Positions 34,908-45,014 of a stretch of 45,014 nt of DNA are shown piece by piece. This stretch comes from Nautiliaceae bacterium. Its GTDB lineage: Bacteria; Campylobacterota; Campylobacteria; Campylobacterales; Nautiliaceae. The notes beneath the pieces were generated by a model. It searched no databases, was not told the origin of the DNA, and worked only from the letters and a program-made list of their open reading frames with translations. Each line of letters starts with the position of its first letter. Position 1 is the first letter of the stretch. Location: the NCBI GenBank assembly GCA_039831155.1, contig JBDONT010000010.1:1-45014 (forward strand), given 5' to 3'. The translations under genes and the position numbers were made by a program.

Positions 34908-36743
34908 TTAGTTTTTAGTTTTAAGATACCTTTTGTTTTCTATTTTTTCTATATCTCCCATTTGGTCTAAATAATCCAGATATGCTACAATATATTTTCT
35001 GCTCATTGGCATATGTTCTTTAAATTTTTTGATATCGATATAACCTTCTTTTTCTATAATTTCCCTCATTTTTTTAAGGGCTATGTTTATGTTTTTATCG
35101 GTTACGAAAAGGTTATGGGCAAGTCTTATTACTTTTTTGGATGTTGTGAGTTTTTTCATAGCGTTATCGCCCACTTTTCTGTCGATATTTAATTTTTCGT
35201 AGATGTTATAAGGAGCATCGGGGGTGAGTCCTGAATTATCAAGCAGCTGGTAGAGTCTGTGTTCTACCGATTTTGTGATATCCACTTCTCCTAAATCTTT
35301 TCTTTTATATATGTTGTCTTCTTTTATTAAATAACCCTCTTTTACAAGCTCATCAAGTACGCTTTTTATAAGTTCCGTACTTGCCCATTTTAGTCTTAGT
35401 TTAAGTGATGCCGGGGAGAGGAATGCCAATCTGTTTTTTTCGTAGGTTTCTTTTATCACTTTTTCAATCTCTTCTTTTACTTCAATTGAGAAGATATTAT
35501 AGTTTTCCTCATCTATGAATACGTTATCAAGCTGTTTTGCAATTTCCAAAGCTTCTTTTGGAGAGAGGTTAAATCTTTGATAGCTTTGAAGTAGCCCAAA
35601 TCCCCTTTTGTGATTTTGAATGAGTATTTCAAATGACGTTTTAAAATCTTTTTTGTTTAGGGCTTTAAGTAAAGAGAGTTTTTTCTTTTTCTTAATAGGG
35701 TCGCTTATAGGGTTTAATACTTCTCCACCTCCGACAACGCGACCGTTATGAAGAATTACAAAAGGGTCTTCAAATACTAAAAAGGCCTTTTCTTCAAGTT
35801 TTATAGTTGCGTATCCTTTTTTTTCTTCCGGGTTAAACATTAATAATTTCCCTGGAATTCTTTTTGCACCACTTATAAATAAAACTTCCATATTGTGAAA
35901 AAGCTCTTTTCCTTCTACAGGCTTTACGAATACGTCGATTAATTTAAATCCTCTTAAATATCCTTTGGTTGAGAGGAGATACCCTTTTTTGAATTCTTTA
36001 TGGTTGATGTTCAAATTTATAGCAACCCTTTGGTGAGTATAAGCTTCTTCTACGTCTTTTCCGTGGACTTGGAGGTTTTTAACGGTTGTTAGAGTTTTTG
36101 TTTCGTTGATATAAATTTTGTCTTTAAGTTTTACTTTTCCACTTAGAACCGTTCCCGTAACAACCGTACCGATACCTTTTAGTGAAAACACTCTGTCGAT
36201 ATAGTATCTGAAAAATTTAGAGTGGGTTATGTTTCTTGGAGGCAGGTTAAACAGGTAGTCTTTCAGTTTTTCTATACTTTCTTTATCGTAAATAGAAGTT
36301 TCGAAAATTTCAAGCAAATGCAGGTTTTTATATTTTGCAATTAAATCTCTGATTTCGTTTTTTCTTTTTTCGATTGTATCTTTGTCGGCCAAGTCGCATT
36401 TTGTAAGGGCCACTATTATGTTTTTGACTTTTAGAATGTTCAGTACTTCCAAATGTTCTATCGTCTGCGGCATTACGCCCTCATTTGCGTCTATTGCAAA
36501 AAGAGAAGCGTCAAATCCGAATGCTCCGCTAATCATATTTTTAACAAGTTTTTCGTGACCCGGGACGTCAATGAATGCGATGTTTACGTCGCCTCTTTTC
36601 ATATTCGTAAAGCTTAAATCAATGGTAATTCCTTTTTCTTTTTCTTCTTTCAGTTCGTCCCCGTTATAGCCTGTCATGGCTTCAATAAGGGATGTTTTAC
36701 CGTGGTCTACGTGACCGGCTGTACCTATAATAATATTACGCAT
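34908..36743 (-). CDS. selB: Selenocysteine-specific elongation factor
   Basis: GTAGHVDHGKT, GITIDL, DVPGHE, C-terminal SRKY winged helix. Confidence 0.97.
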   Translation of the reverse strand: MRNIIIGTAGHVDHGKTSLIEAMTGYNGDELKEEKEKGITIDLSFTNMKRGDVNIAFIDVPGHEKLVKNMISGAFGFDASLFAIDANEGVMPQTIEHLEVLNILKVKNIIVALTKCDLADKDTIEKRKNEIRDLIAKYKNLHLLEIFETSIYDKESIEKLKDYLFNLPPRNITHSKFFRYYIDRVFSLKGIGTVVTGTVLSGKVKLKDKIYINETKTLTTVKNLQVHGKDVEEAYTHQRVAINLNINHKEFKKGYLLSTKGYLRGFKLIDVFVKPVEGKELFHNMEVLFISGAKRIPGKLLMFNPEEKKGYATIKLEEKAFLVFEDPFVILHNGRVVGGGEVLNPISDPIKKKKKLSLLKALNKKDFKTSFEILIQNHKRGFGLLQSYQRFNLSPKEALEIAKQLDNVFIDEENYNIFSIEVKEEIEKVIKETYEKNRLAFLSPASLKLRLKWASTELIKSVLDELVKEGYLIKEDNIYKRKDLGEVDITKSVEHRLYQLLDNSGLTPDAPYNIYEKLNIDRKVGDNAMKKLTTSKKVIRLAHNLFVTDKNINIALKKMREIIEKEGYIDIKKFKEHMPMSRKYIVAYLDYLDQMGDIEKIENKRYLKTKN

Positions 36744-38082
36744 TTTTAATCCTGCATGAGATTATCGAATTAATAATTTTTGCAAGTTTTTCTATTTCGT
36801 CATCTAAAATACTTCTCATATCAAGTACGAATTTTTCGTTTTCTATTCTACCTATTACTAAATTTTTTCTCATAATTTCTTCCCACGTTTTCGCATTACC
36901 CTCAACTTCTACTATAATAGTGGGAATTTTTTGATTAGGCATAGTACCTCCACCTATATAAGTATAAGATTCTTTTATATGAGCTTTAAAGTTAAAAGTA
37001 AGAGAGAGTAATTTTTTAGCTTTTTTTCGTAAATGGTCCTGAGTTTGAAATATGGATTTTAAAGTCGGAATTTTATCGTATTCTTCTTTAATATAGGCAA
37101 GTGCGGTGGCTTCTATTAAAGATAGCGTAATTTTATCGACTCTAAACATTCTTAGAATTTGGTTTTTTTTAAGTTGGTCGATTAATTCTTTTTTTCCTAA
37201 AATTATTCCGGCTTGTACACTACCGAATAATTTATCTCCGCTAAAACTTATAAGAGCGGGATTTAATTTTATAATTTCCGAAATAGGAGGTTCGTTTGCA
37301 CTTAAATTATAAGGAAGTTCTGGAATATAAGCACTTCCTATATCGTAATAGTCTAAAATATTATATTTGGAGGCTAAATTTATTATATCTTTTAAAGAAG
37401 CTTCTTCACTGAAACCTTCTATGGAGTAATTTGATTTGTGAACTTTCATAAGTATCGAAGTGTTTTGTGTAATTGCTTCTTCATAGTCTTTAATTTTAGT
37501 TTTATTCGTTGTACCTACTTCTATTAATTTAGCTCCGCTTGCTTTCATAACTTCCGGTATTCTGAAGCTCCCCCCGATTTCTACAAGTTCTCCTCTTGAA
37601 ACTATTACTTCTTTATCTTTTGCAAACGTGTTTAAAATTAAAAATACGGCTGCCGCATTATTATTTACTATTAACGCACTTTCCGTTCCGAAAAGAGCAC
37701 TTAAAAGTTTTTCGCTATGGTGGTATCTGTCTCCTCGCTTCCCTTTTTCTATATCATATTCTAAATTGCAGTAACGAGTGGAACGTTTTTTTGCATAGTC
37801 GAATATTTCAGGATTTATTAAACTTCTGCCTAAATTAGTATGAACTGTAATTCCGGTTGCGTTTATTACGTTTACTATTGAAGGTAAAAGAAGTTCGTTC
37901 GCTTTAAGCTCTATTTCTTTAATAATCGCTTCTTCGTTTATCTTTTTTATTTTTTTATTTTTTATATCTTCTCTAAGTTTGTTTAAGGTTGTATTGATTA
38001 TAGGTTTTAGGATTTTTTTTGGAATGTGAGATAGCTTTTGTTCGATTTTATCCACTTTGGGAATTTTTCTAAAAAGATTCAT
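36736..38082 (-). CDS. selA: L-seryl-tRNA(Sec) selenium transferase
   Basis: INATG..VHTNLGR, SRGELVEIGGSFRIP, FSGDKL. Confidence 0.98.
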   Translation of the reverse strand: MNLFRKIPKVDKIEQKLSHIPKKILKPIINTTLNKLREDIKNKKIKKINEEAIIKEIELKANELLLPSIVNVINATGITVHTNLGRSLINPEIFDYAKKRSTRYCNLEYDIEKGKRGDRYHHSEKLLSALFGTESALIVNNNAAAVFLILNTFAKDKEVIVSRGELVEIGGSFRIPEVMKASGAKLIEVGTTNKTKIKDYEEAITQNTSILMKVHKSNYSIEGFSEEASLKDIINLASKYNILDYYDIGSAYIPELPYNLSANEPPISEIIKLNPALISFSGDKLFGSVQAGIILGKKELIDQLKKNQILRMFRVDKITLSLIEATALAYIKEEYDKIPTLKSIFQTQDHLRKKAKKLLSLTFNFKAHIKESYTYIGGGTMPNQKIPTIIVEVEGNAKTWEEIMRKNLVIGRIENEKFVLDMRSILDDEIEKLAKIINSIISCRIKNA

Positions 38083-38164
38083 TTTTTGCCTTTGTGTAAT
38101 GCCGCCGGCATTTTTGAGAATTATAGCAAATTATTCGAATAAAAAAAAAAGAAGAAAAAAAGGT

Positions 38165-39031
38165 TTATTTATGGATAATATTAATCGCTTTTTCTTTAAA
38201 TTCTTTTAATTTAGCAATTAAATCGCTAAAAATAGAATTTGTATTATGACCTTTTCTTATTTCACTTTCAAGTTTGGAAATTTCTTCTTTTAGCATTTTG
38301 TAAGTTGTTGTACTTGTACTTGTATAACCTAGTGCTTCAGCTATTACTAATTGATGTTTAGCTTCTTCTAGGTATTTTAAAGCTTGTTTTTTGTCTTTAG
38401 AGATAATTTTGCTTGCTTCTTGAGTTAGAGCCTGAGCTTTGATTAATGGAATAGGGATAATTGTGTCAACTTCAACTAATGTTGAAAGTGCCATAGCAAG
38501 TACGTCTTTTGCTTCTTTAATTTTTCCTTCATTAATATATTTAATCGCAAGATTTAAAGCTGCCGGATATGTAGCTAAAGGCAAGTTGATAGTTTTAATG
38601 TCAATTTCACTTCTTAAAGAGTTTAATACTTCTCTTGCTTGAGGAAGTTTGTTTTCTTCTACTAATATTTTAGATTCTTTAACTAAATCTTTGATTTTTT
38701 TTACGTCTCCTACAAATTGATATGCGTTTATTTGTGTGTCAACAGGTAATAAGTAAGGTGCGTTAGGAGCGTTTAATACTACACTCAATTCTCCTACGGC
38801 TTTTTTTAAAGACTCAATAGCCTTTTTTGTGTTTTTACCGTTTAAGTATATAATAGCGTCTTGTGTGTATTGAATCGCTTTTATAGCTTCTTTTATTAAT
38901 TGAGTGTTTTGAGCTTTTTGTTCGGCTTTAATTACGGCATTTTTTGAAACCGCATTAGTTTTTGCATCCGTTGCTAAAGCATTAGTTAGTAATAAACCGC
39001 TTAATGCTACTGAAACTAGTAATTTATTCAT
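38165..39031 (-). CDS. YfdX-family periplasmic protein
   Basis: Signal peptide; LLPVD, NLPLATYP, AEALGY helical pattern. Confidence 0.8.
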   Translation of the reverse strand: MNKLLVSVALSGLLLTNALATDAKTNAVSKNAVIKAEQKAQNTQLIKEAIKAIQYTQDAIIYLNGKNTKKAIESLKKAVGELSVVLNAPNAPYLLPVDTQINAYQFVGDVKKIKDLVKESKILVEENKLPQAREVLNSLRSEIDIKTINLPLATYPAALNLAIKYINEGKIKEAKDVLAMALSTLVEVDTIIPIPLIKAQALTQEASKIISKDKKQALKYLEEAKHQLVIAEALGYTSTSTTTYKMLKEEISKLESEIRKGHNTNSIFSDLIAKLKEFKEKAINIIHK

Positions 39032-39061
39032 TTTTCCCTCCTTAAATGTTTTAGTAATGCT

Positions 39062-39091
39062 ATTATAATAATTAAGTCGATTAATGTCAAG
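39062..39091 (-). promoter_or_regulatory. Consensus sigma70 promoter of the YfdX gene overlapped by a HAIR-like (HspR) inverted repeat
   Basis: Minus strand TTGACA-N17-TATAAT; CTTGACA-N7-ACTTAAT versus HAIR CTTGAGT-N7-ACTCAAG. Confidence 0.6.
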
Positions 39092-39254
39092 TATTATGAA
39101 TTGAATTAGCTCAAAATTAATTTTTATTTAAAGTTTTTTCATTAAAGATATAAGAAAAAGTTATTTTAAGAGAATCTTAAGTTTTTTTATATAAGATATT
39201 GAAAGAAAATCCTTGATTTCGGATTTTCTTTTTATTAATTCAAAAGGAGAAATT

Positions 39255-39605
39255 ATGAGACGCTTTGCAAAAATGTTGGTAGCAGGGTTGCTACTTGCAA
39301 GTGTCAGTGCCAGTGTAGCAATGGCGGACTACAATAAAGGGCTTAAGTATTTTCAAAGATACATTAAAAAAGCCCATAAAATTAAATCTCCGGATTTATT
39401 AAAAAAAATCGGAGTTAAAACATTGGATGATTTAAATGCACTTTTTAAAGATAATGCAAAGTCTTTAATTGAAAAGTTAAAAGCGGCAGGTCTTAAAGAT
39501 GAAGCTAAAGGTGTTGAGAAAATTGCTAAAAAGCATAAATTGAAAGATTTAAAAGATTTCTTTATCGGAGTATTAAACGGTAAACTTCCGGCTGGCTGAA
39601 GCTAA
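39255..39605 (+). CDS. Small secreted Lys-rich protein; candidate selenoprotein ending ...KLPAG-U-S (ends at 39599 if TGA is a stop)
   Basis: AAGGAG RBS, signal peptide ...VAMA/D, GGC TGA AGC TAA followed by a SECIS-like hairpin. Confidence 0.7.
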
Positions 39606-39608
39606 TAT

Positions 39609-39630
39609 TAAGGGCACAGGTTGTGCCTTA
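39609..39630 (+). promoter_or_regulatory. Candidate bacterial SECIS element
   Basis: TAAGGGCACA-GGT-TGTGCCTTA stem with one bulged G; loop GGT at +20 to +22 after TGA 39597-39599. Confidence 0.6.
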
Positions 39631-39683
39631 CGTTTTAATTTGATTTTTTTTTACATATAAAGTAAAATTTTAATCCTTCAAAA

Positions 39684-39782
39684 GGAGGGGATGTGACCCT
39701 GGTGGGCACCCCGGGCTTCAAACCCGGTGGGGCGGCAGGTGTCTGTCTGCCCGGAAGGTTCGATTCCTTCCCCCTTCCGCCA
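39684..39782 (+). tRNA. selC: tRNA-Sec (anticodon TCA)
   Basis: CCGGG-CTTCAAA-CCCGG anticodon arm, long variable arm, GGTTCGATTCC T arm, GCCA end; near selAB. Confidence 0.97.
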
Positions 39783-39913: not shown

Positions 39914-40978
39914 TCAAAAGGTATATTTGTGATAAATTTTTACAATATTTACATTGAATCCTTTTGATGTTAAGTCATCTTTTCTTTTAACAAGTGAATC
40001 CAAATCTCCATGGACAAGAAATATTTTGGAGTTTTTGTTGTTTGAAAGCCAGCAGTCTATATCTTTTGCATCTCCGTGAGCTGAAAATATATGAAAAGTT
40101 TTGTATTTTAAGTTGACGGTGTGATTTTTATCATTTATATTTATAGGGTTTTCACCGCATTGTATTTTACCGCCGAAGCTTAGAGGACTCTGATACCCTA
40201 CAAACAGCAGTAAAACATCTTTTCTTGACACCAGTCTCGGAAGGAGTCTGAGAGAATTCGCCGTATTTATCATCCCGCTGGTTGAGAGGATAATAACGGG
40301 AGGTTTGAGGCTTTTTATATATCTGTTTTTTAAAAATTCACTGCTTCTGAAATATGTGTTTTCAAGTGTCGGAATTGCTTTTTTATTGTCAATCCAGTTT
40401 GGGTTGTTTATGTATAAATTCGTAATTTTACTTGCAGTGGGTGAGAGCAGATAGATTTTTGTGTTTTGAGGGATAAGCCCTTTTTGAAACAGCAGACCGA
40501 TTTCATAAAGTATTTTTTGAGCTCTGTCCAGGGCAAAAACCGGTATCCAGATTATTTTGGTGTTTATGTTTTTGATTTTTGTTTTTTTGTAAAATGGGAC
40601 AGTTTTAAATAATTTGGTTACATAATTTACTGAACTTAATGTTTTTGAATGTTTGTTTTGCATTTCAAGCATAATTTTACTGAGTTTTGCCGTAGGGGAG
40701 GTCATATATATTTTCCCACGGAAACCTTTTTTGTAAAGTTTTAGCAGTCTTCCTATGTGGTCCGTATGGGCGTGGGTGATTATTACCGCGTCAATATTTT
40801 TAACACTGAAAGGTATATCGTTTTTTCCGTTTATATGAGCTCCTGCATCGATTAAAATTTTGGTGTTTTTGTATTGCACCAAAGCCATGGTGCCGTCAAC
40901 TTCCCCGGCACCGCCGTAGTACGTTACGCTTACGGCAAAAAGATTTACCCAAAAAAGTATTAATATTAAAAATCTCAT
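39914..40978 (-). CDS. MBL-fold beta-CASP nuclease-like protein with signal peptide; apparent internal in-frame deletion
   Basis: GGAGEV, LIDAG, THAHTDHIG, IPVFALDRAQ, SGMI, FVGYQ, FSAHGD, LVHGD present; GH..G, SGD and ESTYG segments absent. Confidence 0.8.
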   Translation of the reverse strand: MRFLILILFWVNLFAVSVTYYGGAGEVDGTMALVQYKNTKILIDAGAHINGKNDIPFSVKNIDAVIITHAHTDHIGRLLKLYKKGFRGKIYMTSPTAKLSKIMLEMQNKHSKTLSSVNYVTKLFKTVPFYKKTKIKNINTKIIWIPVFALDRAQKILYEIGLLFQKGLIPQNTKIYLLSPTASKITNLYINNPNWIDNKKAIPTLENTYFRSSEFLKNRYIKSLKPPVIILSTSGMINTANSLRLLPRLVSRKDVLLLFVGYQSPLSFGGKIQCGENPININDKNHTVNLKYKTFHIFSAHGDAKDIDCWLSNNKNSKIFLVHGDLDSLVKRKDDLTSKGFNVNIVKIYHKYTF

Positions 40979-41306
40979 TTGATTTTAATCTGCTTTTGGG
41001 TTTTAATAAACATCTCAACCCTTCCTTTGTATTCTTTAATCACACCTTTGGCACATATGGTTTTGCCGTTGAAATTAAGATTGTTAAAATTATCCTTGTA
41101 TCTGCTCCATATAATAAAAGTCATTTTCTGATTCGGATAATTTCCGTCGAGGTTTATAAAAATATGCCCCTTTTTGTGATGATAAATTTCGTAAACCTTT
41201 CCGCATACTTCTCCGCATATTCACCAATATGGCTTTTTGCTTCAGTAGTAGTGTATGTCGCAAAAGCAAAATAAAAAATCCCCAGCAGTAAAATAATCTT
41301 TTTCAT
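40975..41306 (-). pseudogene. Secreted OB-fold nucleic-acid-binding protein, frameshifted
   Basis: MKKIILLLGIFYFAFATYTTTEAKSHIGEYA, shift near 41211, then EVCGKVYE...FINLDGNYPNQKMTFIIW...GKTICAKGVIKEYKGRVEM...; TGA overlaps the MBL ATG. Confidence 0.75.
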
Positions 41307-41420: not shown

Positions 41421-41774
41421 TTACCTCCTTTGATATTTTTCTATGATATAGTCAGCTTTGCTTTTTAGGTTTTCTTTTTCCAGTATCTTTGTTTGAATTT
41501 CATTTGGTTCAAATTGTGTTTTTTCTTCCGGTTTGTTTTCATTTTCCTTTCTTTTATTTTTATATTTGATTATTAAATACACGGCGACTAAACTTATAAA
41601 AAACACTCCCCATTTCATAAGAAAAAGCAAAAATTTATTTTCAATTAAACTTCTCAAATCTTCAATAAAAAACCAAAATACAACATCAAAAAACAAAATA
41701 AATCCGATTAAAAACAGTTTTTTTCTGACTTTATAGAAGTAATAAACTAACAGTGTTTCTTTGATTATTCTCAT
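41421..41774 (-). CDS. Two-TM hypothetical protein
   Basis: Two hydrophobic segments, charged tail; start overlaps upstream stop. Confidence 0.75.
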   Translation of the reverse strand: MRIIKETLLVYYFYKVRKKLFLIGFILFFDVVFWFFIEDLRSLIENKFLLFLMKWGVFFISLVAVYLIIKYKNKRKENENKPEEKTQFEPNEIQTKILEKENLKSKADYIIEKYQRR

Positions 41775-42001
41775 CAGAAGCTCCCGATTCCTAATGCAAC
41801 AAGCAGTGCCATAATGGTTTTGTTTTTATATTCGCCTATGAGTCTGTCTTCTTCGTCTTTAATTATTGTTTCAAGTTCTTCTTTGGTTAGGTCGTTTATA
41901 TCGATACCTTTTTCGGCCAGTCTTGCTTTTGTTCTAAGCAATGCTTTTGTTCTTATGTGAGTTTTGATTTTTGTTTGAAGGTTTTTAATTTTGAGTTTCA
42001 T
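41774..42001 (-). CDS. 75-aa hypothetical protein with hydrophobic C-terminus
   Basis: AAAGG RBS; first gene after a WYL-box promoter. Confidence 0.75.
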   Translation of the reverse strand: MKLKIKNLQTKIKTHIRTKALLRTKARLAEKGIDINDLTKEELETIIKDEEDRLIGEYKNKTIMALLVALGIGSF

Positions 42002-42027: not shown

Positions 42028-42058
42028 ATTATAAAACTCAAGAGTGACAAAAAATGTC
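42028..42058 (-). promoter_or_regulatory. Putative WYL-regulator box 1 plus -10
   Basis: Minus strand GACATTTTTTGTC-ACTCTTGAGTTT-TATAAT. Confidence 0.7.
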
Positions 42059-42080
42059 TGATTAAATCAATTTTATTAAT

Positions 42081-43052
42081 TTACATTTCTTTTAATATAG
42101 CTTCTAAATCTTTTTTAAATTCATTTTTTAATTCTTCAGATTCTAATATTATTATATTAGGTATCCATTTTTTTATAAAAGGCAGAATTTCCATAGGTTG
42201 GGTGTAGGTCAGTTCAAAAATAACTCCTTCGTCGTTTTCTTCGATAAATTTTTGGGATGAGAGGAATTTTTTCATATCTTTTCTAAAATAATGAGCCACT
42301 TCTTTTTTTGCAAGCAATCTTGCTTTTTTAGGCTCCACTCCGTATAGAGTTAGTGAATTTTGTATATTTTGCAGGTATTTTTCATATTTTTCGACTGAAT
42401 TTTTTTGAAATTTTTTTTCTTTAAGTTTACCGTTTTCTTTGATGAAAACAGGCTTGACGTCTTTTATAAAAGATATTCTTAAAAATCTGAATTTTTCGTT
42501 TTCATCTTCACACGCAAGATACCAGTTGTTATCGATAAATACCAATTTTATAGCTTTTACTGTCAGCGTTTCTTCATCTTTGATTATTTTCAGGTATTTG
42601 TGTTCTTTTACGGCATTTTTTATTTTGGAAAAAAGTTTTTCTTTTGTTTTCAAATCCTCCATAATAGAGTTTTTGAAAATAAAGATGTTTTTTTCTGATT
42701 TAATGAGTTTTTTGGCTTTTTTTCTTGTTTCATCTTCAAGGTTTTTTAAATATTCCGGGTTTGTTTGGGATAAATCTTGTAAAATAAAACTTATATCATC
42801 GCTTTTTGTCAGAATTTCGAATATTATATCGGCGGTATCGTTTATTTTGTAGCATGTTTTTTTGTTTTTGAAATCTTTTTGTATGACATCTTCGCCAAAA
42901 TATTCTGCAAGTCCGTCGAGAATATCCTTAACTCTTCTTTCTACCTGGTCGAGATTTAAAATCTCTTTGATTTCCAAAGGGGTAAAACACTGTTTTGCAG
43001 ACATTAGCAGTTTCAAAACATCAAAAGCCTCTTTTGCTTTTTTATGAATCAT
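42081..43052 (-). CDS. HTH-WYL-WCX transcriptional regulator
   Basis: N-terminal wHTH (ERRVKDIL), LVFIDNNWYLAC, FRFLRISFI, C-terminal EILPFIKKWIPNI. Confidence 0.92.
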   Translation of the reverse strand: MIHKKAKEAFDVLKLLMSAKQCFTPLEIKEILNLDQVERRVKDILDGLAEYFGEDVIQKDFKNKKTCYKINDTADIIFEILTKSDDISFILQDLSQTNPEYLKNLEDETRKKAKKLIKSEKNIFIFKNSIMEDLKTKEKLFSKIKNAVKEHKYLKIIKDEETLTVKAIKLVFIDNNWYLACEDENEKFRFLRISFIKDVKPVFIKENGKLKEKKFQKNSVEKYEKYLQNIQNSLTLYGVEPKKARLLAKKEVAHYFRKDMKKFLSSQKFIEENDEGVIFELTYTQPMEILPFIKKWIPNIIILESEELKNEFKKDLEAILKEM

Positions 43053-43078
43053 ATTAATTCCTTAAATAAATTTATTTT

Positions 43079-43109
43079 GCCATTTTTTGTCATCATAAAT
43101 GATTACAAT
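43079..43109 (+). promoter_or_regulatory. Putative WYL-regulator box 2 plus -10 (darT promoter)
   Basis: GCCATTTTTTGTC-ATCATAAATGAT-TACAAT. Confidence 0.7.
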
Positions 43110-43139
43110 TTTATCATAAATTATTGAGAAAGGATGGTC

Positions 43140-43661
43140 ATGGGAAAAATTACTGAATTATTTGTAAAAGAACATTTAGAAAAAAACGGTATCAAAAGTT
43201 TATGGCATTTTACAGATCTCTCAAATTGGGAATCAATTAAAAAATATGGGATTCAGTCATTATTTAGAATAATCAAAGATGATATTAAGGTTTCTCGTTT
43301 CGGTGCAAATGCTTTATCTCATGATTTGGATTATTATAAAGGATTAGACAGATATGTTCATTTGAGTTTTACAGATGACCATCCTATGTATCATATTGCA
43401 AAAAAGGAAAAAAGAATAATAAATCCGATTTGGATAGAAATTGATATAAATGTTTTATTTGATAAAAAAGTATTGGTTTGTAAAGGTGTCGCAAACAAAA
43501 CAAACAGTGTTTTATTAAATTTAGCCGGTGTGTTGAACTTTGATTTTGATAAAATGTTTCATGATGATTTTGAAATAAGAAAAGAAGCAAGAAAAGCGGA
43601 AATACTTATATACGATTGTATTGAGACTAAATATATAAAAGGAGCTTATTATGGCAAGTAG
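43140..43661 (+). CDS. darT: DarT-family (DUF4433) DNA ADP-ribosyltransferase toxin
   Basis: LWHFT..SN..SI..YGI.S, YVHLSF..DHPM, catalytic-type AEILI; ATG 43140 better spaced from AAGGA than 43134. Confidence 0.8.
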   Translation: MGKITELFVKEHLEKNGIKSLWHFTDLSNWESIKKYGIQSLFRIIKDDIKVSRFGANALSHDLDYYKGLDRYVHLSFTDDHPMYHIAKKEKRIINPIWIEIDINVLFDKKVLVCKGVANKTNSVLLNLAGVLNFDFDKMFHDDFEIRKEARKAEILIYDCIETKYIKGAYYGK

Positions 43662-44325
43662 ACCGGCATTTATAGCAACTAAAAATGATAAACTTGTAGA
43701 AATTATAAATGTGGAATTTGAATATTTTACCGGATTTGCCGCTGTTCAAAAAGCAAAAACGAGAGATTCTTTTCATAATGCCATCAGAGAACATGGATAT
43801 GAAAAAATACTTGAAGTTTCTACTAATTCCGATAACGAATTAGGCTGGCAATTAAGCGCTTTTAATTTAATGACGGATTATGATGGAGAGAAAATTCCGC
43901 TTGAATGTGCTTTTCAGGGCAGTAAGGTATTTGAATACGGAGGGCCATATACGGATATATTCAAAAAAACAAACATAGAAGCCAAAAAAGACAAAAGACT
44001 CAAAAATTCCGGTAAAGTTATTAAATTTAGATATGAAGGAAACGAGTGGGAAACCGAACCTCAGACCGCATTTTACGACTGGTTGTATATTTCAACGGTA
44101 TATAAAAATTACCCGCACTTGATAGAAGAACTTGCAAATTATGAAGTTTTTACCGATATAGCCTTTAATCCGAAAAAATCAGTCAACTGCCAGGCAAAGA
44201 GCTGTGCTATTTTGGTATCATTGTATCATATAGGCAAACTTGAAGAGGCTTTGTCTTCAAAAGATAATTTTTTGAGAATTGTTTATGGATATAAAGAAAA
44301 ACCAAAACAGGGGAGTTTGTTTTAA
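43651..44325 (+). CDS. DarT1-associated NADAR-type antitoxin
   Basis: MASRPAFI, ILEVST.S, LSAFNL, ECAFQGSKVF, FYDWLY, FTDI.FNPKKS.NCQA; overlaps darT stop. Confidence 0.8.
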   Translation: MASRPAFIATKNDKLVEIINVEFEYFTGFAAVQKAKTRDSFHNAIREHGYEKILEVSTNSDNELGWQLSAFNLMTDYDGEKIPLECAFQGSKVFEYGGPYTDIFKKTNIEAKKDKRLKNSGKVIKFRYEGNEWETEPQTAFYDWLYISTVYKNYPHLIEELANYEVFTDIAFNPKKSVNCQAKSCAILVSLYHIGKLEEALSSKDNFLRIVYGYKEKPKQGSLF

Positions 44326-44339
44326 AATTCATATAAATT

Positions 44340-44370
44340 GACATTTTTTGTCCTTGGTAACTAATATAAT
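44340..44370 (+). promoter_or_regulatory. Putative WYL-regulator box 3 plus -10
   Basis: GACATTTTTTGTC-CTTGGTAACTAA-TATAAT. Confidence 0.7.
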
Positions 44371-44400: not shown

Positions 44401-44739
44401 ATGGGATATTGGTTTGGAGAATTTAGCAATTGCACTTCTTGGAGAAAAACACCTGTTAAGATTGGCAATACCTGGTATACTCCAAGCGGAGAGAGGATAA
44501 GAAATCCTAAAGCTTATTTTACCAAAGTTAGAAGAAACGGCAGATATTGGGAAAATAATACGGGCTGGAAAAAATCCAATAAATTCTGTGAGCGTGAATA
44601 TGATGATTTTGATTATAATTTTGAAAACTATGATAATGAAGATTATGATTACAATGATAATTCATACGAAGAAGAACGCTGGGATTTGCGTGATATTTAC
44701 GGGGATTTTTATGATGATGAGTTTGATGATTATGAGTAA
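44401..44739 (+). CDS. Hypothetical protein: basic Trp-rich N-half, D/E/Y-rich C-half
   Basis: AAGGAGG RBS; 112-aa ORF. Confidence 0.75.
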   Translation: MGYWFGEFSNCTSWRKTPVKIGNTWYTPSGERIRNPKAYFTKVRRNGRYWENNTGWKKSNKFCEREYDDFDYNFENYDNEDYDYNDNSYEEERWDLRDIYGDFYDDEFDDYE

Positions 44740-44809
44740 TACTAAATATGCTGTTTTTAATATTGTGAAAAAAGGAAAAATTTTTATAGATGTTTGATAT
44801 AATTATATA

Positions 44810-44953
44810 AGCCTAGATATTGATGTCTGTGCTGTAATCGGCACAGGTCTATAAAAGTTAACACTTGTCTTCGCAATTTTAAAAGTGAAAGTAAAAAGTG
44901 AAATAGAGTAAGTAAATCTATCATTGCTTCGAATCCTAATGAATATCTAGGCT
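44810..44953 (+). ncRNA. Putative structured ncRNA closed by a 12-bp inverted repeat (retron msr-msd-like)
   Basis: AGCCTAGATATT (44810-44821) / AATATCTAGGCT (44942-44953); internal hairpin CTGTGCTG-TAAT-CGGCACAG; TGaTATAAT at 44795-44803. Confidence 0.55.
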
Positions 44954-44971
44954 GTTTGAAAAAGGGAATAA

Positions 44972-45014
44972 GTGGAAAAGTTATTTAAATATATAAATCT
45001 TTATATTATAAAAA
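44972..45014 (+). CDS. Possible 5' end of a CDS leaving the window (MEKLFKYINLYIIK...)
   Basis: AAAGGG RBS, GTG at 44972, open to the window end. Confidence 0.45.
   Translation, partial: MEKLFKYINLYIIK

Follow-up and report, generated by a model that had tools for sequence, protein, structure and literature searches.

A palindromic box, GAC-N7-GTC, stands exactly 12 nucleotides (nt) before the -10 hexamer of three promoters in an island of a Nautiliaceae bacterium, and comparison with characterized systems predicts that it is probably the operator of an activator of the WYL family resembling DriD of Caulobacter crescentus. The stretch analysed, positions 1 to 45,014 of contig JBDONT010000010.1, is called the window below. 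The promoters serve a unit of small genes (unit 1), darT with its NADAR partner gene (unit 2) and an open reading frame (ORF) of 112 amino acids (aa; unit 3), grouped around a gene for a WYL regulator (wyl). Across the phylum Campylobacterota, the more general palindrome GAC-N7-G(T/A)C was likewise found 12 nt before -10 hexamers, over the place of the -35 element, ahead of defence genes and near WYL genes. A preliminary description of this DNA had reported the three elements at 42058-42028 (minus strand), 43079-43109 (plus) and 44340-44370 (plus). All three were found at those coordinates, and box 2 lies 26 nt upstream of the wyl ATG (43052), as claimed there. The elements and the regulator gene are as follows.

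42046..42058, minus strand: box 1, palindrome GACA-N5-TGTC; identical in the related locus L145
42028..42033, minus strand: -10 hexamer TATAAT of promoter 1, without TG extension
43079..43091, plus strand: box 2, GCCA-N5-TGTC; the GCC half-site is kept in the related locus L065, where the spacer differs
43104..43109, plus strand: -10 hexamer TACAAT of promoter 2
44340..44352, plus strand: box 3, GACA-N5-TGTC
44365..44370, plus strand: -10 hexamer TATAAT of promoter 3
42081..43052, minus strand: wyl, protein of 323 aa with winged helix-turn-helix (wHTH), helical linker, WYL and WCX domains and a DriD-like fold; R39-x3-D43 in the recognition helix
43108..43116, minus strand: probable own promoter of wyl, extended -10 TG-n-TAAAAT, back to back with the darT -10 and overlapping it

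The three island boxes were confirmed and exceed chance expectation by far. The pattern of box, N12 and -10 hexamer matched three times in the window, compared with a mean of 0.03 in shuffled sequence, and 0/100 shuffles reached three. A scan of the whole genome, proposed in the preliminary description, confined the strict pattern to the island (three matches in 1,530,382 bases) and singled out spacer 12 with a looser pattern, which matched five times there and 0-1 times at any other spacer between 8 and 17. The 12-nt spacers are unrelated as claimed, any pair of the three having 4/12 positions in common. Chance and tandem duplication as origins of the boxes were rejected on account of the shuffles, the genome scan, the spacing peak and the unrelated spacers. 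An ordinary -35 element was also rejected: TTGACA is absent at boxes other than box 3 and stood at 17/18 nt in 0/33 box promoters. The TTGACA at 44338 had earlier been dismissed as a -35 for lying 21 nt from TATAAT. That distance was confirmed, yet the same hexamer lies 18 nt from a TAATAT, which weakens the argument; it carries little in any case because Campylobacter sigma-70 promoters have no clear -35, TGxTATAAT being used in its place (PMC3656092).

GAC-N7-G(T/A)C at 12 nt from a -10 is a widespread element of Campylobacterota genomes and clusters at WYL genes. Counts of genomes and loci are descriptive throughout, as related genomes are not independent. A WYL-anchored set of 113 loci (L005-L033 and L065-L148; 823 kb, deduplicated on 40-mers) contained 84 oriented perfect copies of GACA-N5-TGTC. 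A strong -10 followed 31 of them at spacer 12, compared with 0-2 at any other spacer between 4 and 23; no spacing peak was seen for four control palindromes across these loci. In 101 genomes of the order, a loose pattern counted by eye gave 114 matches at N12 (41 with TAHAAT), 40 at N11 (3) and 46 at N13 (13), with 35 for a reversed control. With the present genome left out, a WYL match lay within 25 kb of 51/112 N12 matches, compared with 2/40 at N11 and 8/46 at N13. A stricter pattern, GAC-N7-G(T/A)C 12 nt before the -10, matched 135 times in 59/151 Campylobacterota genomes and nine times in its reversed control, again tallied by eye. Both half-sites are kept: GAC was present upstream in 38/63 TGTC-anchored sites and G(T/A)C in 51/67 GACA-anchored sites, with 0-2 at shifted spacings. 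The core and its AT-rich centre are conserved, and conservation of the outer C/G found in DriD's site is weak.

At orthologous WYL loci, whose comparison the preliminary description had also suggested, the same three boxes were present in L145 (wyl 95% identical), together with a fourth after the reverse transcriptase (RT) operon. In L065 (86% identical), box 2 still precedes darT-nadar, and its spacer differs. The preliminary description had suggested that wyl might also be autoregulated through box 2; this possibility is qualified by L146, where a 96% identical wyl is without the box 2 region, and by DriD, which leaves its divergent gene unregulated. WYL genes are patchy, occurring in 58/101 genomes in up to four copies, island- or plasmid-borne. 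A plasmid of the cultured Arcobacter cloacae, pACLO, has three box promoters and a WYL gene, which makes direct testing possible. In G074, G043, G011 and G001 a 13-nt spacer is used beside or instead of 12. In G200, one box promoter occurs in three identical distant copies (L181-L183) with no downstream ORF preceded by a ribosome site, perhaps a repeated mobile element.

The closest published counterpart is DriD, a homodimeric activator gated by single-stranded DNA (ssDNA). DriD binds CGAC-N7-GTCG with both wHTH domains via Arg37 and Arg41 (PMC10853764). Its site overlaps the -35 at one distance from the -10; it contacts the C-terminal domain of alpha (alpha-CTD) and beta, not sigma region 4, and leaves its own divergent gene unregulated (PMC13004042). 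The distance was counted by eye as 12 nt in the printed probes, taking as -10 the hexamer that lies 17 nt after an engineered -35 and begins 12 nt past GTC. Because -10 hexamers of Caulobacter are degenerate, this count is approximate, and a register of 10 nt gives a loose fit as well. The island system shares with DriD the palindrome GAC-N7-GTC, the AT-rich centre, the -35 overlap and the 12 nt of this eye count, as well as a divergent gene pair and the wHTH-helical linker-WYL-WCX fold, which suggests that the promoter geometry of DriD is conserved across phyla. It differs in its targets, which are defence and island genes here and the DNA-damage genes didA, bapE, recJ and dnaG in Caulobacter, in the weak flanking C/G, and in an island protein without equivalents of Arg41, Glu40 and Tyr168.

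Two further activators offer partial parallels. DdaA of Acinetobacter (Moraxellaceae), from a clade with a replaced SOS system, has the same box, CGWCA-N5-TGWCG, and activates repair, restriction-modification and CRISPR-Cas genes (PMC12392091, PMC13010146); the earlier statement that defence-linked WYL proteins are repressors is therefore out of date. DdaA is, however, a core regulator of recA, ssb and uvrA with its box reportedly ~50 bp upstream of the start, whereas the boxes here lie at about -37 to -25 and the WYL genes are patchy and island- or plasmid-borne. SiwR of M. smegmatis resembles the predicted regulator in being a homodimeric WYL activator encoded by a single gene, which acts on a neighbouring operon and has its palindrome placed between the -35 and the -10. 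It reads another sequence (GGA at -26) and controls one DinB-like operon, with no defence targets reported (PMC10693628).

The island WYL protein has the DriD-type layout of wHTH, helical-bundle linker, WYL and WCX, as seen from Pfam matches (WYL and WCX) and a structural model with a mean predicted local distance difference test (pLDDT) score of 87.9, in which the helical linker spans residues 73-120. DriD was the best structural match (Foldseek E 1.7e-12; Z 13.7, root-mean-square deviation 4.1, 182 residues aligned), and CapW and BrxR, which regulate defence islands, matched less well (E 7e-6 or worse; Z 10.1-11.1). A family profile search likewise placed DriD at the top and did not find CapW or BrxR at E<=1. 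A sequence search with the single island protein against PDB gave no match. The equivalents of the ssDNA-pocket residues Y192, R204, R207 and Y240 of DriD are kept as Y178, R189, R192 and Y237. Those of Y168, R176 and R178 are absent, in a loop where the alignment is weak, and the nearest proteins with the same Asp as D43 (Asp-type) also lack the Tyr168 equivalent. NWYL at 176-179 takes the place of the RWHVR motif of BrxR and CapW. Close relatives of the protein come from Nautiliales-labelled bins and vent metagenomes.

Which WYL protein reads the box was considered from the recognition helix, R39-R-V-K-D43 in the island protein and R37-T-A-E-R41 in DriD. The column of D43 holds Arg in 95/118 homologues and Asp in 19/118, and most box loci have WYL proteins with Arg/Lys-x3-Arg. 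Tight binding by DriD is lost with R41A, and E40K weakens it 83-fold (PMC10853764). Gene decay as the cause of D43 was ruled out by a ratio of non-synonymous to synonymous substitution rates (dN/dS) of ~0.05, wHTH included (dN 0.02, dS 0.36 relative to L145; dN 0.08, dS 1.6 relative to L065); the gene, judged from these rates, is under purifying selection with the Asp retained. The Asp state needs three changes on a quick tree of 53 chosen rows with a midpoint root. All four Asp-type rows have boxes nearby, and no pattern tied a box variant to the Asp or Arg type in these four rows. A second WYL protein of this genome, encoded downstream of cas6 on contig C23, belongs to a separate clade and has the Arg-x3-Arg pair intact; genome G101 also holds both an Asp-type and an Arg-type WYL. 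A heterodimer of the island and C23 proteins folded with an ipSAE of 0.79, compared with 0.00 for the best control, with at least 60% of contacts common to the runs and a partner pLDDT of at least 73. This mark was reached by 116/157 solved pairs and 2/215 mismatches; the score may reflect likeness to solved WYL dimers.

The preliminary description had taken the single adjacent WYL protein as the reader. Reading by a WYL protein is supported; the adjacent gene as lone reader is doubtful because its product has no Arg41 equivalent and a second WYL with the Arg pair intact is present. Within DriD-type reading, the Arg-intact C23 paralogue is the likeliest reader in this genome, at somewhat under even odds. 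A heterodimer of the island and C23 proteins comes second as a tentative possibility, and the island protein alone, which would use R39, R40 and K42, comes third as a fainter one.

The genes behind the boxes were surveyed with a position matrix trained on the WYL-anchored loci. In this genome, six sites scored at least 19 at spacer 12, and 0-1 did so at spacers 9-11 and 13-15. Three of the six are those of the island; the others precede a 101-aa ORF at the end of contig C21, cas10/csm (C19) and the tmRNA gene (C9). Weaker sites precede csx20-csx1, a CARF gene and cas6-wyl2; they are candidates only, because their scores (16.2 on C12, 13.4 on C25 and 11.5 on C23) fall inside the range of the shifted-spacer controls. 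The regulon had been described as lying around wyl. This is too narrow, since other contigs, too, carry boxes, ahead of CRISPR type III and ancillary operons. The box-like site on C9 (1770, minus strand; L151) scored 19.9 and lies ~130 nt before a tmRNA gene with seemingly its own promoter; it may reflect chance or a tmRNA link.

No box was present at recA, ssb or uvrA of this genome, the best matrix score being at most 0 in the 450 nt upstream of each, and a global DNA-repair regulon was rejected here on this ground. A LexA DNA-binding domain was not found in this 96.7% complete genome. In relatives, an ORF with a ribosome site lay downstream in 113/135 site rows, 76 of these within 20-39 nt of the -10 (the loci overlap). 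After removal of duplicates and WYL genes, 71 first genes were scanned. Pfam named 31 of them, including DarT (5), Cas2 (4), Cas6, Csm2, MoxR, HD, MYG1 and PcfJ, and no core repair gene was among the 71. PADLOC added Csx1, Csx20, LeoA and PDC families among box-following genes, and two HIRAN genes were seen among 12 further ones. The regulon is apparently dedicated to defence, core repair genes having been checked in this genome alone. Basic peptides of ~45 aa recur as the first gene after a box (L083 4693-4827, L115, L121, L176 5102-5233, L180 3821-3955); in pACLO they precede RT-cas1-cas2. Some WYL proteins carry a fused AAA_33/KTI12 kinase-like domain (~500 aa; P0010-P0012, P0043 and others, L125 1110-2684), and several of these are encoded directly after a box promoter.

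Activation by the box is favoured by the geometry, the fold and the scarcity of extended -10 elements. A TG extension was present in 2/73 box promoters, compared with 126/394 intergenic -10s of this genome (p 7e-9), and G at -14 was found in 3/33 box promoters, compared with 61/216 non-box -10s of the same loci (p 0.018). Within the island, TG is lacking in the three box promoters and present in the probable promoters of wyl and of the retron. By analogy with DriD, ssDNA from phage replication, restriction or DNA damage would bind the WYL pocket and free the two wHTH domains, and the dimer would then grip both half-sites. It would anchor sigma-70 RNA polymerase via alpha-CTD and beta, without sigma adaptation. 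Promoters weak on their own would thereby be switched on, resulting in co-induction of DarT-NADAR, the small island genes and the CRISPR type III and ancillary operons.

Several observations weigh against a DriD-type activator. The island protein lacks the equivalents of three DriD residues (Arg41, Glu40, Tyr168) whose mutation cripples DriD, and PafBC comes near DriD by Foldseek (9.5e-12). The spacing is not absolute, as a strong -10 was counted by eye in 13/46 N13 matches, clustered in one family. No box was found in the available flank of 51/103 Arg-type WYL rows, nor in two 25-kb Arcobacteraceae plasmid loci (2/3 plasmid loci examined). The matrix is circular for the WYL loci that trained it. 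Depletion of TG was not significant relative to non-box -10s of the same loci (1/33 versus 23/216, p 0.22), and a dimer bound over -37 to -25 could block polymerase as well.

The best placed of the rivals, though unlikely, is such a block: the box would be a repressor operator in the manner of BrxR and CapW, a WYL dimer over -37 to -25 keeping polymerase out until released on binding ssDNA, as CapW and BrxR are (PMC11662680, bioRxiv 2025.11.13.688357). The box does overlap the polymerase footprint, island-borne WYL proteins adjoining defence genes are classically repressors, and the WYL gene itself stands behind a box promoter in several loci (L009, L014, L022). RNA contigs from a vent cover the three units, which are thus not silent in situ (one sample, level not readable). 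A repressor, however, has no need of a distance exact to 1 bp, and the box sequence is that of two proven activators, DriD and DdaA. Box promoters mostly lack the TG extension of the strong promoters of this genome, and the fold and profile searches put DriD above CapW and BrxR. Although these also act on defence islands with ssDNA as ligand, their sites have 10-11-bp arms, that of BrxR lying downstream of its -10 (PMC9122601), whereas the arms here are of 3-4 bp and upstream of the -10.

Sigma adaptation of the PafBC type, also unlikely and ranked second, would place one wHTH on the proximal half-site at -26 and the other, that of the Asp-type island protein acting like PafC, on sigma region 4. 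PafBC of mycobacteria reads tGTCgg-N10-tAnnnT with one HTH and has the other on sigma-4 (PMC8635444). The PafBC-like distance claimed in the preliminary description was confirmed, the proximal TGTC lying 12 nt from the -10 with GTC at -26, exactly the PafBC position. Helix 3 of PafC is acidic and does not read DNA, and the island protein has kept Asp for Arg at its low dN/dS; an Arg-type WYL is present in both checkable genomes where this Asp-type gene occurs, and the heterodimer score fits as well. Yet that score has the limit given above, helix 3 of the island protein retains a net basic charge (R39, R40, K42), and most box loci have Arg/Lys-x3-Arg proteins. Conservation of the distal half-site, which PafBC, a heterodimer on one non-palindromic half-site, does not need, equals or exceeds that of the proximal one. 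The PafBC model is not supported because both half-sites are conserved, the palindrome and distance are those of DriD, and DriD is nearly without sigma-4 contact. Of the earlier interpretation, a WYL-read box at fixed distance, most likely activating defence genes and conserved at related loci, has stood, and PafBC sigma adaptation as its model has not. Reading of the box by a non-WYL factor, or its origin by chance or duplication in an AT-rich island, is very improbable: about half of the WYL loci are without a box and 20/112 N12 matches lie in genomes without a WYL match, but 20 matches in 43 genomes are close to the control rate (35 in 101), the unrelated spacers diverge while the box stays, and the motif is a known WYL operator.

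For a DriD-type operator, the parts already known are the box and geometry, from DriD, and defence activation, from DdaA; the DriD-like mechanism itself is not new. Novelty lies in the phylum, in regulators that are patchy, borne by islands or plasmids and united by one box, in the apparent limitation to defence, and in a conserved subunit of the Asp type. No report of a WYL regulon or of this box in Campylobacterota was found in a literature search, subscription papers being outside its reach. Known Campylobacterota pathogens lack LexA (PMC2912397). A wider and doubtful proposal is that the phylum, LexA-less where checked, might use one box for a defence-only ssDNA alarm into which any incoming island plugs. 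Asp-type WYL proteins, having arisen more than once, would be non-DNA-reading partners of an Arg-type WYL from another locus, adapting sigma-4 in the fashion of PafC or tuning the alarm. If true, this would be a mix-and-match regulator spanning unlinked defence islands. Little is known of how defence systems are switched on during infection, and island-borne WYL proteins have hitherto been taken for repressors. The promoter signature is precise and can be scanned for, and it predicts co-induced defence genes (DarT-NADAR, Cas1/2/6/10, Csx1, Csx20); the many unnamed small ORFs behind boxes are candidate defence genes.

The gene labels of the preliminary description (WYL with WCX, DarT and NADAR-DarT1) were upheld by Pfam. 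The remaining features of the island are listed below.

43134..43661, plus strand: DarT ssDNA ADP-ribosyltransferase (PF14487), first gene of unit 2
43651..44325, plus strand: NADAR antitoxin (PF22397)
44401..44739, plus strand: 112-aa ORF, N-terminus basic/aromatic, tail acidic, no family
41774..42001, minus strand: 75-aa ORF opening unit 1, without a family match above cut-off
41421..41774, minus strand: 117-aa probable membrane protein, unit 1
40979..41306, minus strand: small exported OB-fold-like gene, frameshifted in the window; whole (109 aa) in L145
39914..40978, minus strand: metallo-beta-lactamase (MBL)/beta-CASP nuclease-like gene, signal-like N-terminus, ~80 aa internally shorter than the L145 copy
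44795..44950, plus strand: probable retron non-coding RNA with its own box-free extended -10 (44795-44803), then a 9-nt inverted repeat (44813-44821 / 44942-44950)

Unit 1 is decaying in the window (39914-41306), with a 2-nt frameshift in the OB-fold-like gene and the internal loss in the beta-CASP gene, both of which are whole in L145. No family or fold was found for the 112-aa ORF, a small protein of MGYW type, and an Atlas search gave no usable match; relatives of its N-terminus are the first gene after a box in unrelated genomes (L016 2334-2525, L114 4667-4861). The RNA contigs stem from one vent sample sequenced in two runs. Their ends, 41995/42007 and 43161/43150, fall close to the predicted starts, and wyl is covered by fragments only; they come from one study, their start, strand and level are not readable, and they were not used as support.

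Inclusion of the retron in unit 3 was disfavoured, and it is probably outside the box regulon because of its own box-free extended -10. Its inverted repeat flanks ~120 nt. Past the end of the window, on the far side of an assembly gap, lies a gene for a retron-like RT fused to HisKin-conflict, and after it come a 185-aa ORF and a gene for an iREC protein (whole unit, window 44795-45014 and L001 7200-10647). The best PADLOC profiles for this RT are retron XI/XII, and no PADLOC model covers the whole RT-histidine-kinase conflict fusion. A run of N just past the window end (L001 7016-7116), with ~130 nt duplicated on both sides, is an artefact of assembly; in L145 the RT gene is unbroken. An Rfam search had tRNA-Sec as its sole match. 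On the other side, the island is flanked by selB, selA and tRNA-Sec (window 34908-39778), and insertion after tRNA-Sec is apparent.

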